A DNA stretch of 64,000 bases from the NCBI GenBank assembly GCA_965116905.1, contig OZ220732.1, forward strand, positions 3,264,001 through 3,328,000, written 5' to 3'. This DNA is from Longimicrobiales bacterium. Its GTDB lineage: Bacteria; Gemmatimonadota; Gemmatimonadetes; Longimicrobiales; Gaopeijiaceae. The notes beneath the pieces are model-generated. The model was not told the DNA's origin. It did no database searches and saw nothing but the letters and a program-made list of their open reading frames with translations. A program made the position numbers and the translations under genes. This document shows, one piece after another, positions 42,591-49,262 of this stretch; position 1 is the first letter of the stretch, and each line of letters begins with the position of its first letter.

Positions 42591-45287
42591 ATGGGGCTGT
42601 GTGGCGCGGTGGAGAAGGGGAAGCGGGGAGGTTGGTGTGCAGTGGCGGTGGCGGTGGCGGCGACGGCGTCGGTGGCAGCACCGGCGGCCCTCCCGGGCCA
42701 AAGCATCGAGAGCGGTGGCACGGAATCGGCAACCGGAGGACGTGCGGCTCCTCCAGCGCTGGAGGCCCACCGCATCAGCGGCCCCGCGCCGGTGATCGAC
42801 GGATTGCTCGACGAGGCGGACTGGCGGGCGGCGATGGTGGCCCGGGATTTTGTGGTCTTCGAGCCCAACGAAGGCATGCCGCCCTCCGAGAATACCGAAG
42901 CCCGGGTGCTCTACGGCGAAGAGGCCATCTATGTCGGCATCCGCGCCTTCGACGCCTCGCCGGACTCCATCGTCACTCGTCTGGCACGAAGAGACGAGCG
43001 ACCCCACTCCGACTGGGTGGACGTGGTGATCGACAGTTACCACGACAAGCGCACCGCATTTCGTTTCGGGGTCAACCCGGCCGGCGTGAAGAACGATTCC
43101 TACATGTTCGACGACACCAACGAGGACGACTCCTGGGACGCGGTGTGGGACGTCGCCACGCGGACCGACGACCAGGGCTGGACGGCCGAGTTCCGCATAC
43201 CGTACTCGCAACTGCGGTTCGACGGCGCTACGCAGCAGACCTGGGGAATCAACTTCGCCCGCTTCATCGCAAGGCACCTGGAGCGCAGCCTCTGGGCCCC
43301 GATCTCGCGGGGCGATGGCGCACTCGTCTCACGGTTCGGCGATCTCGTGGGGCTGCACGACCTCTCGCCCCCGACCCGGCTCGAGGTCCTGCCCTATTCC
43401 CTCGTGCGGATGGAGAGCGCGCCCGGCAACGCCGCTGATCCGTTCCACGATCCTTCCGACTTCTCCTCGACCGTGGGGGCCGACGTCAAGTACGGCCTCA
43501 CCACCGACCTCACCCTGGACGTCACCATCAACCCCGACTTCGGACAGGTGGAAGCCGATCCGGCCCAGGTCAACCTGACCGCCTTCGAGACCTTCTTTCC
43601 GGAGCGCCGCCCGTTTTTCGTGGAGGGCGCCGGCATCTTCTCCTTCCGGTTCTCCGAGGGAGACGGAGACATGGCCAGCGAGGGCCTCTTCTACTCCCGG
43701 CGCATCGGCCGTTCACCGCAGGGACGCGTTCAGTCGTCCGGCTACTTCGACGCGCCCGACCGAACGCGCATCCTCGGCGCAATGAAATTGTCGGGCAAGA
43801 CCCGCTCCGGCTGGTCGCTCGGGGTGCTGCACGCGCTCACCGGACAGGAGGAGGCCCTCCTCGCCACCGGAGCAGGCGCGACAAGCGATCAGGTGGTCGA
43901 GCCACGCGCCCAGTACGGCATGGCCCGGGTAAGCAGGGACTTCCGTGAGGGGAAGAGCGCCGTGGGAATGATCTCGACCTGGACGCGGCGCGACCCCGCC
44001 GCAGCCGGCCCACTCAGTCTGCACAGCGCCGCATACACAGGGGGCGTCGACGCCCGCCACCGCTTCGGAGACGATCGGTTCATCGTTTCCGGCTACCTGC
44101 TCGGCTCGACGGTCCGGGGCTCGGCGGATGCGATCGCCCGCACCCAGCGCTCCCCGGCCCGCTACTTCCAGCGTCCCGACGCCACACACACCGAGTACGA
44201 CCCCACGCGCACCTCGCTGGGCGGCTGGGCGGGATCGGCCACCCTGGCCAAGATCTCCGGGGGGTACTGGCGTTTCGCGACCGGGGCGATGGCGCGCTCA
44301 CCCGGCTTCGACTCCAACGATCTCGGCTTCATGCGGGAGGGGGACTTCATCGCACCCTTCGTCTGGGTAGGCTACCAGCACTTCCGGCCAACCGACCACT
44401 TTCAGCGCTGGCACGTCAACTTCAACGCCTGGACGCCCTACAGCTTCGGCGGAGAGGCCTATTCCAGGGGCGCGAACGTCAACGCCAGCGCTACCCTCAA
44501 CAACTTCTGGGGCGGCTACTTCGGCGTCATGAGACAGTCCGAGGGGCTGTCGAATACGATGTTGCGCGGTGGCCCGATGCTGCTGCGGGACCCATCGTGG
44601 GGCGGCTGGTACGGGTTCTGGTCGGATTCCCGCAAGCCGCTGCAGGTCGAGGTCGGCAACAACTGGCAACTCCGCCGGGAGAGCGGATCCTGGAGCTACG
44701 GAGCCGATGCGAACCTGCGCTGGCGGCCGTCGCCGCGCGCGACCCTCAGCGCGGGTCCCTTTGTCAACTGGAGACAAGAGGACCTGCAGTGGGTCGGACG
44801 TTTCGGGGCGGAGGTCCCCAACTACGTCTTTGCCGAGCTGTCGCAGACGACCGTCGGCATCACCGCCCGGGCGGACTGGACCTTCTCGCCCAACCTGTCG
44901 TTGCAGGTCTACGCGCAACCCTTCGTGTCGGCCGCCGACTACGGATCGTTCAAGCGCATCACGGACTCGCGCGCGACGGCCTACGCGGACCGGTTCGCCA
45001 ACCTGGGGACCGCGGACGGGGGCGATGGAACCCTCCAGGCCGACATCGACGGCGACGGCGCCGCCGACACCTTCCGCAACCCGGACTTCAACTTCAAGCA
45101 GTTCCGCTCGAACGTGGTGCTGCGCTGGGAATACCAGCCCGGGTCCGCGCTCTTCCTGGTGTGGTCGCAGGGGCGAGACCACTACGCCCAGACCGGCGAC
45201 TTCTCCTTCCGCAACGACCTCGACACCCTTCTCCACCAGCCTGGCCAGGACGTGCTCATGCTCAAGCTGAGCTACTGGCTCGGATAG
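42591..45287 (+). CDS. DUF5916-like outer-membrane protein with N-terminal CBM9-like domain; start uncertain
   Basis: PVIDGLLDE..W, GWTAEFRIPYSQLRF, TINPDFGQVEAD, FFPERRPFF, FYSRRIG, ends KLSYWLG. Confidence 0.8.
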   Translation: MGLCGAVEKGKRGGWCAVAVAVAATASVAAPAALPGQSIESGGTESATGGRAAPPALEAHRISGPAPVIDGLLDEADWRAAMVARDFVVFEPNEGMPPSENTEARVLYGEEAIYVGIRAFDASPDSIVTRLARRDERPHSDWVDVVIDSYHDKRTAFRFGVNPAGVKNDSYMFDDTNEDDSWDAVWDVATRTDDQGWTAEFRIPYSQLRFDGATQQTWGINFARFIARHLERSLWAPISRGDGALVSRFGDLVGLHDLSPPTRLEVLPYSLVRMESAPGNAADPFHDPSDFSSTVGADVKYGLTTDLTLDVTINPDFGQVEADPAQVNLTAFETFFPERRPFFVEGAGIFSFRFSEGDGDMASEGLFYSRRIGRSPQGRVQSSGYFDAPDRTRILGAMKLSGKTRSGWSLGVLHALTGQEEALLATGAGATSDQVVEPRAQYGMARVSRDFREGKSAVGMISTWTRRDPAAAGPLSLHSAAYTGGVDARHRFGDDRFIVSGYLLGSTVRGSADAIARTQRSPARYFQRPDATHTEYDPTRTSLGGWAGSATLAKISGGYWRFATGAMARSPGFDSNDLGFMREGDFIAPFVWVGYQHFRPTDHFQRWHVNFNAWTPYSFGGEAYSRGANVNASATLNNFWGGYFGVMRQSEGLSNTMLRGGPMLLRDPSWGGWYGFWSDSRKPLQVEVGNNWQLRRESGSWSYGADANLRWRPSPRATLSAGPFVNWRQEDLQWVGRFGAEVPNYVFAELSQTTVGITARADWTFSPNLSLQVYAQPFVSAADYGSFKRITDSRATAYADRFANLGTADGGDGTLQADIDGDGAADTFRNPDFNFKQFRSNVVLRWEYQPGSALFLVWSQGRDHYAQTGDFSFRNDLDTLLHQPGQDVLMLKLSYWLG

Positions 45288-45423
45288 ACTGACGGGGACA
45301 CCGCCGCGCCGCTCCGGCGGCCGGCGGACAGGAGGCCGGTGTGGGCGCGTGTGGGCGCCCGCCCGGCCTCCGCCCGTCTCCGGGGCGGCCGTTGTGCCGG
45401 ACCGCCCCGCACGGCATACTTCG

Positions 45424-46905
45424 GTGCAATCGACCGGCCTGCCCACATCGACCGCGAGGACCACCACGCCCCCCCTGCCCCGCTTCGTCGCGGTCGTCAA
45501 GGACGACTGCGAGACCTGCCACCTCGTCGCACCCCTCCTCGCACAGATCGCGGCGGCAGGCCATCCGCTCGACGTGTATTGGCAAGACGACGGGGCCTTT
45601 CTGCCGACCTCTCTCGCCACGGTGGACGACCGCCATCTGGAGCATTCGTTCCGCATGGACATCGTGACGGTCCCCACCCTGATCCGGCTGGAAGACGGAG
45701 CGGAGACGAGACGGACCGAGGGATGGGACGCGGCCGACTGGCGCACCCTGACCGGCCTGGAAGGGCTCGGCGAGGCACTTCCGGCCCGTCGCCCCGGCTG
45801 CGGCTCACGCTCGGTCGAACCGGGCGTCGCGGAAGCACTTAGGGCGCGTTACGGCGAGACCGGGATCCTGGCACGCGAGGTCGTTCTCGGCGACATGATG
45901 GACCCCGTCGAGGCGTGCTTCGATCGCGGCTGGACCGACGGCCTCCCCGTCGTGCCCCCGACCCCCGAGCGAATCCTGCGCATGCTCGCCGGCACGAGGC
46001 GCGATCCGCACGAGATCGTCGGCCGCGTTCCGCCGGACATGGTCCCGTGCACGGTGGAGAAGGTTGCGATCAACGCGGTCATGGCGGGATGCAGACCCGA
46101 GTACCTCCCCGTAGTGCTGGCCGCGCTCGAGGCCGCGCTGGACCCCGCGTTCACCCTGCACGGTGTGACCTGCAGCACCTGCTTCTCCAGTCCCGTCGTC
46201 ATCGTCAACGGCCCGATCGCGAAGCGCCTGGGCATGAACTCGGGCATGAACGCGCTCGGCCAGGGCAACCGCGCCAACGCGACGATCGGACGCGCGCTCA
46301 ACCTCGTGGTCCGAAACGTCGGCGGCGGGCGGCCCGGCGAAATCGATCGCGCCACCCTGGGTACGCCCGGCAAGTACACGTTCTGCTTCGCCGAGGACGA
46401 GTCGGACGACGGCTGGACGCCTCTCGCGGTGGCACGGGGGGTTCCTCCCGGGTCGAGTGCCGTCACCGTCTTCGCCGGGGACGGTGTCCAGGGCGTCTGG
46501 GACCAGAAGGCGCGCACACCCGCCGAGCTGACGCATTCCCTCGCCATGGCGCTCACCGCAGTGGGGCATCCGAAGCTGTGCGAGTGGGTGCAGGCGGTTC
46601 TCGTTCTCTCGCCCGAGCACTACGCCATCTACCGCGGGGCCGGCTGGGACCGTGACCGGATCACCACCGGCCTCCAGGAGGCCCTGTCGCGCCCCGGCGC
46701 CGAGGTCGCGGCCGGGGTGGGTGGCGTCGCGGAGGGCATGCCGCCCTCACGCCGAGGCGAACAGGTACCCAAGTTTCATCCGAACGGCCTCCTGTTGGTC
46801 CGCGCAGGCGGACCGGCAGGGTTGATGTCCGCCATCCTGTCGGGCTGGCCGGGAGGACGCGACTACGAGGAATCCCACCCCATCACACGAGGAATCGTCG
46901 AATGA
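45424..46905 (+). CDS. Thioredoxin-like CxxC domain fused to a domain of unknown function (UGSC-associated)
   Basis: KDDCETC, VPTL cis-Pro motif, PGCGS, WTDGLPVVPPT, AINAVMAGC, GNRANATIGRA; GTG start inferred. Confidence 0.75.
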   Translation: MQSTGLPTSTARTTTPPLPRFVAVVKDDCETCHLVAPLLAQIAAAGHPLDVYWQDDGAFLPTSLATVDDRHLEHSFRMDIVTVPTLIRLEDGAETRRTEGWDAADWRTLTGLEGLGEALPARRPGCGSRSVEPGVAEALRARYGETGILAREVVLGDMMDPVEACFDRGWTDGLPVVPPTPERILRMLAGTRRDPHEIVGRVPPDMVPCTVEKVAINAVMAGCRPEYLPVVLAALEAALDPAFTLHGVTCSTCFSSPVVIVNGPIAKRLGMNSGMNALGQGNRANATIGRALNLVVRNVGGGRPGEIDRATLGTPGKYTFCFAEDESDDGWTPLAVARGVPPGSSAVTVFAGDGVQGVWDQKARTPAELTHSLAMALTAVGHPKLCEWVQAVLVLSPEHYAIYRGAGWDRDRITTGLQEALSRPGAEVAAGVGGVAEGMPPSRRGEQVPKFHPNGLLLVRAGGPAGLMSAILSGWPGGRDYEESHPITRGIVE

Positions 46906-47462
46906 ACAACCCCGAAATCCGGCTGCACGATCCCACGTCCGAATCCGCTCCGGCCGTCCGTCCCCGCCACCCTCCCCTTCCATCGCTGGCGGACAGAACG
47001 GTGGCGCTGTTCGACATCGGCAAGACACGCTCGGACGAGTTCCTGGATTACCTCGAAGCCCGGTTCCGGGCGCTGGACATCGCCACCGGGCGCTTCGCCA
47101 AGCCGACCAACGCCAAGCCCGCGTCCACGGAGACTCTGGACGCGATCGCGGCGGGCGCGGATGCGGTCGTCGTGGCGCTCGCCGACTGAGGCTCCTGCGT
47201 ATCATGCGGTCTGCATGACATCAGGATGCTCGACGATCGGGGCGTTCCCGGTCTCCTCGTAGCCACGACGGCCTTCGAGGACGCGGCCGCGCATCAGGCG
47301 CGCTCGCTCGGCTTCGATCCCGCCGTCGCCTGGGTGCCGCACCCCGTACAGAACCGGAGTCCCGACGAGCTGGAGGCCCTGGCCGCCATGGCGATGAAGT
47401 CCGTCCTGCGACACCTGACTTCGGACGGCGGGGACGACCTCGACCCGGGCACGACCCCCTGA
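46902..47462 (+). CDS. UGSC-family selenoprotein (Sec at TGA 47187-47189), ~186 aa
   Basis: ORFs 46902-47189 and 47226-47462 are in one frame; readthrough gives ALAD-U-GSCVSC-GLHD; hairpin immediately downstream. Confidence 0.88.
47193..47226 (+). promoter_or_regulatory. Bacterial SECIS-like stem-loop
   Basis: TCCTG-CGTA-TCATGC-GGTCT-GCATGA-CAT-CAGGA; upper stem begins 12 nt after the UGA; G-containing apical loop. Confidence 0.8.
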
Positions 47463-47498: not shown

Positions 47499-49262
47499 CT
47501 ACACGGGCGTCGTGGCGATCAGCAGCACCACGAGCACGACAAGCGTGAGCGGGGTGCCCAGCCGTGCGTAGTCCCCGAAATGATACCCTCCCGGGCCGTA
47601 GACCATCAGGTTGGTCTGGTACGCCACCGGCGTCATGAAGGACGCCGACGCGGAAAGCGCGACGGCCACCGCCGCCGCCCGCGCGTCGATCCCGAAGTCC
47701 GCGGCCGTCGAGAGCGCGATGGGCAGAACGAGCGCGGCGGCCGCGTTGTTGGTGATGAAGGAACTGAGCACCACGGTGCTGATCACGATGCCCGCCATGG
47801 CGCCCTGGGGCCCGAAGCGCCCGAGGACATCATTGACGAGCTGGGCGGCAGACTGGCCCAGGCCGGAGCTGTCGACCGCGGCGGCAAGCCCGAACGCGGC
47901 GCCGATCACGATGATGACCTCGAAATCGATCGAATCCTTGGCTTCATTCGTGGTCAGGATGCCGGAGCCGATAAGGACGAGCGCGCCGATCAGGGACAGG
48001 TGCAGGATGGGAAGCACGCCCAGGCCGGCGCCGAGCACGATGACCGCGGCAACACCCGCCACGACGGCCGCCTTTCCCGTGGGCTCCGGGGCCGTGTCCC
48101 CAAGGCGGGGCACAAGCAGAAAGTCGGTGCGGTGGCGCCAGCGCTCGCCGAAGCCCCGGTCCGAGATGAGCAGCAGCGTATCGCCGGCGCGGAGAGGCTC
48201 GCGCGCGAGGTGACCCTTGATCGGCTCCCCCGCCCGGTGGATCGCCACTACGGTGCCCTGATAGCGCGCCAGAAACTGGATGTCCACGAGCGAGCGGCCC
48301 ACGAGCCGGGACTCAGGCGCGATGACCGCCTCGAAGTACGCGTGCCGCGGGCTGCCCACCTCGTGGGGCAGGTGCGGCTCCTGGGCCGACGCTATGCCCG
48401 ACACGTCGTGCAGCTCGAGCACCGTGTCCATCCCTCCGACCAGCGTGACGTAATCGCCGCCCTTGAGCACCGTACGCCCCGAAACCTGCGCCGCCCCTTC
48501 ACCGTCGCGCTCGAAATACACGATCACCGCACCCTCGGGGAACCGCGTCCGGGCCTCGCTGACCGCCAGCCCATCGACGGGCCCGCCGGGCTCGACCACC
48601 ATGCGGACCGAGAAGCTCCGGCCCTCTGAACGCGCCTCCTGGCGCGGCGGCAGCCGGTCCGGCAGAAGCTTCGGCGAGAGCACGACGGTGATCACGAGGC
48701 CCAACAGGGCCATCGGCAGGGCGAGCCGGGTCAACTCGAACATCGAGAAGGGATCATGTCCCTCCGCCTGGAGCAGACCCGAGACCACGATGTTCGTGGA
48801 TGTGCCGATCAGCGTGGTCATGCCCCCCAGAATGGCGGCGAACGAAAGCGGCATGAGGTAGCGGGACGCCGAGTCTCCGCGCCGGTCGGCCCACTCCGCC
48901 ACCTGCGGCGCCAGCATGGCGATGATCGGGGTATTGTTCAGGAACGCGGACGAGGCGGCCACGGGAACCGTAATCCGCGCGAGCGCGGTGCGCAGACCGC
49001 GGGCCTTCCCCAGGGTCGCGCGCACGAGGGGCTGCAGCGCCCCGCTCTTTTCCACCCCCCGCGCCAGGATGTAGAGCGCGGCAACGGTGATGGGCGCCGG
49101 ATTCGAGAACCCCTGGAACGCCTGCCCCGGACTCACGACATCCGCCACCATGAGCACCACGACCGCGGCCCCGAAGGTGACGGCCGGTGATACCAGTTCG
49201 CGAGCGAGCACCACGACGGCCACCGAGACGACCGCCAGCGTCAGCCACGCGTCGGCGCTCAT
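47499..49262 (-). CDS. SLC13/CitMHS-family permease with TrkA-C domains
   Basis: GFSNPA, SAFLNNTP, TLIGTSTN, FITNNAAA, FMTPVAYQTNLMVYGPGGY. Confidence 0.9.
   Translation of the reverse strand: MSADAWLTLAVVSVAVVVLARELVSPAVTFGAAVVVLMVADVVSPGQAFQGFSNPAPITVAALYILARGVEKSGALQPLVRATLGKARGLRTALARITVPVAASSAFLNNTPIIAMLAPQVAEWADRRGDSASRYLMPLSFAAILGGMTTLIGTSTNIVVSGLLQAEGHDPFSMFELTRLALPMALLGLVITVVLSPKLLPDRLPPRQEARSEGRSFSVRMVVEPGGPVDGLAVSEARTRFPEGAVIVYFERDGEGAAQVSGRTVLKGGDYVTLVGGMDTVLELHDVSGIASAQEPHLPHEVGSPRHAYFEAVIAPESRLVGRSLVDIQFLARYQGTVVAIHRAGEPIKGHLAREPLRAGDTLLLISDRGFGERWRHRTDFLLVPRLGDTAPEPTGKAAVVAGVAAVIVLGAGLGVLPILHLSLIGALVLIGSGILTTNEAKDSIDFEVIIVIGAAFGLAAAVDSSGLGQSAAQLVNDVLGRFGPQGAMAGIVISTVVLSSFITNNAAAALVLPIALSTAADFGIDARAAAVAVALSASASFMTPVAYQTNLMVYGPGGYHFGDYARLGTPLTLVVLVVLLIATTPV

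Follow-up and report, generated by a model that had tools for sequence, protein, structure and literature searches.

Two overlapping genes in the 64,000-nucleotide stretch of Longimicrobiales DNA that was analysed (the window) encode a thioredoxin-fused protein (ORF A) and a selenoprotein of the UGSC family (ORF B), which very probably form a heterodimer and are likely to work as a thioredoxin-fed reductase. The more specific proposal, that the two chains are one enzyme in which selenocysteine (Sec) reductively cleaves a carbon–heteroatom bond of a small organic acid and is recharged by the enzyme's own thioredoxin, is offered as an evenly balanced call; a catabolic setting for this cleavage is given the same weight. 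The proposal draws on genes, recoding signals, co-conservation, fusions and homologies that were observed and on folds and an interface that were predicted. The features of the module are as follows.

45424–46905 (+): ORF A, 493 residues, thioredoxin domain plus domain X ('Unknown_1'); GTG start, TGA stop at 46903–46905
45466–45762 (+): thioredoxin-fold domain, residues 15–113; CxxC with C29 at 45508 and C32 at 45517
45670–45675 (+): cis-Pro-type VP of the thioredoxin domain
45793–45807 (+): PGCGS motif, which holds C126; G125 and C126 are invariant in 37/37 thioredoxin-fused relatives
45865–46875 (+): domain X, ∼340 residues (about 148–484); matches the Unknown_1 alignment of PMC2398784, Fig. 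S1A
46902–46905 (+): ATGA overlap between the stop of ORF A and the start of ORF B
46902–47462 (+): ORF B, 186 residues with TGA read as Sec, UGSC family; ATG start, TGA stop at 47460–47462
47187–47207 (+): Sec96 (TGA at 47187–47189) and its motif U-G-S-C-x-x-C, in ADUGSCVSC
47188–47231 (+): SECIS hairpin; apical stem 47202–47218, loop GGUCU

The selenoprotein gene and its partner

ORF B was assigned to the Pfam family UGSC (PF24696) with 114.7 bits (cut-off 25, E = 6.7e-33, model positions 2–171 of 172). Its score against NCBIfam NF041046 was 110.9 bits and, because this lies under the curated cut-off of 125, the protein was placed in the Pfam family and not in the NF041046 equivalog. The sequence-only reading had recognized a selenoprotein and missed the named family; the selenoprotein is real, as judged from its SECIS element and the Sec genes of the genome. 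In an alignment of 93 diverse rows the Sec position is occupied by Sec or Cys in 98%, the Cys three residues on is present in 96% and the last Cys of the motif in 67%. Among 79 orthologues (from the best 80 of 582 GTDB loci) the Sec position is encoded by TGA in 67 and is Cys in 12.

The stability of the hairpin, computed from the single sequence, is modest to weak (z = −1.98). Two of its pairs that involve wobble positions are formed in 121/121 distinct TGA genes, compared with 7/13 and 4/13 Cys genes, a contrast that a SECIS predicts and that was drawn from related, non-independent sequences within one protein family. The genome carries tRNA-Sec, selA, selB and selD, the three protein genes all scoring above cut-off. 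selD itself (G000:C1:641772–642698) has one in-frame TGA and is therefore likely to be a selenoprotein gene too, and 17 tRNA genes are arrayed within 2 kb on one strand at G000:C1:1296478–1298432. In runs X1 and X3 a 19-base tandem duplication was seen at the end of ORF B (47441–47462), where the stop is kept by inspection.

By number of sequences (255) UGSC ranks fifth among the selenoprotein families tabulated for GOS in PMC2398784, and it ranks top in most non-marine samples; no function is given in the available sections of that paper. Its Fig. S1A (Zhang and Gladyshev, 2008) includes UGSC fused to a conserved domain termed 'Unknown_1', so that the pairing of X with UGSC is already in print and its function is not. 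The available parts of two further papers call the function of UGSC unknown (PMC1976440) and the family largely uncharacterised (a 2026 review, PMC13188914). A literature search that covered papers outside the subscription journals and a minority of supplements returned no functional study of UGSC or X.

The 493-residue ORF A protein is an already-called gene in a public collection, and its nearest named relatives (90% identity) belong to Longimicrobiales/Gemmatimonadota genomes; no Pfam or NCBIfam family was matched. Its start is uncertain, since an in-frame GTG at 45349 offers an alternative and conservation sets in only from about residue 8–21. In three genomes of the genus (G001, G011 and G016) ORF A was matched as two to three pieces, reflecting either a frameshift or a split between thioredoxin and X, by assembly error or in reality.

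The ATGA overlap claimed from the sequence was found in place and recurs in all 20 loci checked in the window's genus (its own included); the TGA within ORF B stands at the same position in 19 of these, the 20th stopping at a contig end. Because both features recur in this way the arrangement is more than chance, and we infer translational coupling of the two ORFs via the ATGA. Among the best 80 of 582 GTDB loci, ORF B lies downstream of X in 79 and the ATGA end is present in 54 (counted by eye). A UGSC gene was found ≤2.5 kb from X in 68/80 metagenome loci (ten of the 12 misses being contig ends), in 18/19 plasmid loci and in 37/38 further GTDB regions. Across 36 genomes of the genus X is present in 24 and UGSC in 25, the one discordant genome being fragmented (370 contigs); as selA is retained in ten of the 11 genomes without both, the pair appears to have been gained and lost as a unit. 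Neither X nor UGSC was found in 24 genomes from two sister families. A fused UGSC piece occurs in 19 of 123 X proteins, in both orders. The neighbourhood conservation that had been proposed as a check is thus borne out.

Two long fusions carry additional domains. P0341 combines UGSC and X with fibronectin-III and S-layer homology repeats, and P0342 combines them with fibronectin-III, a dockerin-like end and, by eye, a signal-peptide-like start; P0339 and P0340 share the fibronectin-III match. Both P0341 and P0342 are devoid of the Sec/Cys motif and have Ala in place of C223, and they are probably surface-displayed, redox-dead binding versions.

Thioredoxin domain, domain X and the predicted complex

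The AlphaFold2 model of ORF A has a mean pLDDT of 95.0 and a pTM of 0.90. All of the motifs named in the sequence-only reading were located in the translation, namely CETC (C29/C32), VP (V83–P84), PGCGS (124–128), DGLPVVPPT, AVMAGC (C223), TCSTC and GNRANATIGRA. Residues 15–113 have the thioredoxin fold, a CxxC at the start of a helix and the cis-Pro motif, which makes the claimed thioredoxin-like region a true thioredoxin domain. C126 is likely to be a relay or resolving cysteine.

Compared by eye, residues ∼215–272 of ORF A match the published Unknown_1 alignment, the motifs AINAVMAGC.PEY.PV, HGVT and VNGP being present. Representatives that match ORF A at E ≤ 0.001 number 6020 (50% clustering), and domain X, a family that runs to thousands of clusters, lacks both a Pfam model and a clear relative among solved structures. 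In the aligned rows of a 123-sequence alignment T252 is conserved in 93%, C223 in 96% and C321 in 88%. The cysteines of TCSTC, a motif that had been listed for the large Cys-containing domain, are poorly kept in the same rows (Cys in 17% at C250 and in <15% at C253); the earlier reading needs correction here, TCSTC being no conserved redox motif.

HHalign detected no homology between X and GrdE (0.17%, two GrdE rows only), and none of the 123 X proteins matched the GrdE/PrdA pyruvoyl family PF09338 at E ≤ 0.1. X likewise showed no similarity to the class I fumarase profile (0.10%). Foldseek, run with the whole of ORF A, gave a weak likeness to class I fumarate hydratases (TM 0.20–0.35), and the VIA-align structure lists were filled by the thioredoxin domain. 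None of the three outcomes named beforehand as refutations was obtained.

Many X paralogues are devoid of a fused thioredoxin, and single genomes were found with seven and five X matches. At L201, L211, L216, L217 and L227 a single UGSC gene is accompanied by two X paralogues, either one on each side or both downstream, and the ∼710-residue proteins P0045, P0072, P0073 and P0077 match X twice; both observations suggest that X acts as a dimer or heterodimer.

ORF A was co-folded with a natural Cys orthologue of ORF B (from Bradyrhizobium, 42% identical) in place of the window's own subunit and scored 0.76, compared with 0.00 for the best control; the mark applied is reached by 116/157 solved and 2/215 mismatched pairs, and is rough here because own alignments were used. 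Contacts agreed to at least 92% between runs and the pLDDT of the partner was at least 89. The predicted interface comprises residues 95–97, 99–101 and 104 of the partner, which make up the Sec loop, and residues 148–220, 241–252 (with H246 and T252) and 294–309 of X. In the model the N-terminal arm of UGSC (3–14) packs on X, and the Sec loop (95–104) together with the KPTN loop faces X residues 241–252 and 294–309; the thioredoxin domain, C126 and C223 are not named among the contacts. Co-folding, also suggested as a check, thus returned an interface that includes the Sec loop, and the model supports binding of ORF A to ORF B.

Kinship, electron source and rival explanations

Comparison of 93 UGSC rows with ten PrdB-like rows by HHalign gave 95.1% (E = 3.2e-8) with the Sec in register, over a match that spans only about 80 columns and against 0.5% for the reversed control; when a narrow alignment was used the match to the PrdB-like rows was weak (29%). 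ORF B matched GrdB weakly (E = 0.0011) and reached 18 bits against TIGR01917 (GRDB), far under the cut-off of 602, and no match to the GRDB family (PF07355) was found in the genome. On this profile evidence UGSC is a homologue of the catalytic (C-terminal) domain of PrdB/GrdB, and the module falls outside the Grd/Prd families. The analogy to the Grd/Prd reductases drawn in the sequence-only reading holds for the Sec subunit, the homology of which to PrdB/GrdB is genuine, and fails for X, for which no homology to the pyruvoyl subunit was detected. Short PrdB-like selenoproteins of the V-U-P-x-C type (L104–L117) occur in about one-tenth of 151 genomes of the phylum with no X nearby, and a full GrdB with GrdE is present in two genomes.

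X, fused to thioredoxin here, is fused to AhpC/TSA-type redoxins in 9/123 proteins. Operons of the unfused forms read X-UGSC-trxB (L200) and trxB-trxA-X-UGSC (L203), and trxB is also present at L207. TrxB-like genes were counted in 21 of 217 loci (2.43 Mb) compared with one in the 4.2-Mb own genome, the background being this one genome, two of the 21 matches being the queries and some being AhpF-like or under the TrxB cut-off. One protein of the 123 (P0054) joins X to the catalytic beta chain of ferredoxin-thioredoxin reductase.

Among 17 annotated plasmid loci (19 were read of 24 matches) eight have a TRAP/TAXI/TTT transporter and six a family III CoA-transferase, both common families counted without a background control. 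Further genes in the plasmid loci code for LysR regulators, CoA-ester lyases, acyl-CoA dehydrogenases, aconitase X and malonyl-CoA enzymes, and Cys stands at the Sec position in ten of the 11 plasmid motifs read. These neighbourhoods, which belong mostly to distant paralogues without a fused thioredoxin and in several cases to related haloarchaea, point to the catabolism of varied organic acids. Among the loci examined no substrate-defining neighbour was common to different phyla. In the window the module stands alone and in no catabolic cluster, flanked by a DUF5916/CBM9-like gene (42591–45287, +) and a CitMHS/TrkA-C (DASS-type) anion transporter gene (47499–49262, −), which are syntenic in ten and eight of the best 80 loci, respectively, nearly all from close relatives.

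Individual neighbourhoods are more specific. A UGSC-X fusion lies beside a split aconitase X and DUF126 in Vibrio and in the distantly related Sporomusa (L206:5001–9008 and L209:3851–9005). In Neorhizobium (L218:4364–9021) a UGSC-X gene, annotated as two pieces that overlap, has malonyl-CoA decarboxylase and malonyl-CoA synthase immediately upstream, and the product there may be malonate. On an IncP plasmid that carries insertion sequences (L205:4956–12168) UGSC and X are found amid D-amino-acid-oxidase-like, PEP-mutase/isocitrate-lyase family and aroA genes.

A detoxifying, thioredoxin-fed reductase for peroxides, sulfoxides, disulfides or thiosulfonates, resembling peroxiredoxin or Msr, with X providing specificity and with no catabolic role, would account for the UxxC motif with its fused thioredoxin and for the isolation of the module in the window. 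An AhpC-like peroxiredoxin gene is nearby in nine of the best 80 of 582 loci, in one lineage, and the title of one reference names a peroxidase activity of GrdB. This explanation is nevertheless unlikely given the several paralogues per genome, the contexts with transporters, CoA-transferases and LysR regulators and the patchy presence within one genus, and peroxide reduction would hardly call for so large a dedicated partner or for its conserved cleft. A role in the handling of sulfur, selenium or a metalloid is distinctly unlikely for the pair, whether by reduction of a persulfide, S-sulfonate, selenite or organoarsenical or by release of sulfite from organosulfur acids. selA and selB occur in nine and eight neighbourhood clusters, respectively, but clustering with sel genes is common for selenoprotein genes; in Paracoccus the pair adjoins DsrE, TusA and cysteine desulfurase, and ComA-like genes (L203 and L204) and an XcbD/PurB-like lyase (L204) were noted, all under family cut-offs. 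Such neighbours are confined to a small minority of the 217 loci, haloarchaea have Cys forms and, if the leaving group is sulfur, the idea partly overlaps with reductive carbon–heteroatom cleavage.

The weak Foldseek likeness to fumarate hydratases would suit a lyase, isomerase or hydrolase whose Sec or Cys is a nucleophile with no redox role and is merely kept reduced by thioredoxin, as would the many paralogues without a fused thioredoxin and the surface-anchored fusions, which imply that the fold has a use without Sec/Cys and C223. The fumarase profile result for X (0.10%), the 96% conservation of the resolving-type Cys and independent links to three kinds of disulfide reductase make this highly unlikely. 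Extremely improbable is a minimal glycine, betaine or proline reductase with a pyruvoyl group that X forms by self-cleavage in the manner of GrdE and PrdA: the homology of UGSC to the PrdB/GrdB catalytic domain and the well conserved T252, predicted to lie beside the Sec loop, favour it, yet PF09338 matches none of the X proteins, the GrdE comparison stays at 0.17%, the TCSTC cysteines are not kept and the genome is without a GRDB family match. One point against the preferred reading, reductive cleavage by Sec after the manner of PrdB, is the report that PrdB U151C is inactive (PMC11229817, in the part available), whereas many UGSC relatives use Cys, including the 12 of 79 orthologues from the best 80 of 582 GTDB loci.

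Proposed mechanism and comparison with known systems

The chemistry proposed for PrdB begins with an attack by Sec on the alpha carbon of proline bound to the pyruvoyl group, after which a neighbouring Cys would resolve the selenoether and a separate protein would carry out re-reduction (PMC3091704 and PMC11229817, available parts). As X shows no detectable homology to GrdE, glycine-type Schiff-base chemistry is unlikely here and, with no pyruvoyl group, the substrate would have to be pre-activated or carry a good leaving group. It would bind in the predicted cleft between the U-G-S-C loop and the X loops that contain H246/T252 and GGGxPGxxD. By analogy with PrdB, Sec96 would attack the carbon adjacent to a carboxyl or acyl-CoA group, or a sulfur on that carbon, with expulsion of the leaving group, and Cys99 would resolve the adduct, giving a selenylsulfide. 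This could then be re-reduced by the C29/C32 thioredoxin, possibly by way of C126, and the thioredoxin would itself be recharged by the single cellular TrxB and NADPH.

In a wider and more tentative reading, which falls somewhat short of an even call, UGSC and X would constitute a large unnamed class of pyruvoyl-free, thioredoxin-driven Sec/Cys reductases, an offshoot of the proline/glycine reductases with a new-fold partner and many paralogues, and this class would remove N-, S- or halogen substituents from organic acids or their CoA esters in bacteria and archaea. If true, this would at last assign a function to one of the most abundant selenoproteins of aquatic environments. With UGSC as one half of a predicted heterodimer that has a likely place for the active site, of PrdB/GrdB rather than thioredoxin descent and likely to be fed by thioredoxin and TrxB, an NADPH-coupled screen can be set up; the thioredoxin-fused form is the simplest to reconstitute, and the natural Cys orthologues spare the expression of Sec. 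The value of the module is that it makes the long-open question of UGSC testable.

A precedent for reductive cleavage of an S–C bond by a redox dithiol is the flavoprotein disulfide oxidoreductase described in PMC8358701; from the available part of that paper it is an unrelated enzyme, devoid of Sec and with no sequence or fold link found, and serves as an analogy only. The UGSC-Unknown_1 fusion of PMC2398784 has in common with the present pair the UGSC motif and the Unknown_1 segment in X; here, the two parts are encoded by overlapping genes and X has an N-terminal thioredoxin. A thioredoxin-like fold was suggested for UGSC in that paper, whereas ORF B is modelled here as a flavodoxin-like alpha/beta fold and not as a thioredoxin. 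With PrdA/PrdB and GrdB/GrdE the module shares a homologous Sec domain with UxxC in register and a two-subunit organization with a large partner, and glycine reductase is likewise fed by thioredoxin and thioredoxin reductase (PMC3091704, available part). The partner in those systems differs from X, which shows no GrdE/PrdA homology and has no conserved pyruvoyl-forming Cys; here, moreover, the thioredoxin is fused to the partner and Cys forms are common.
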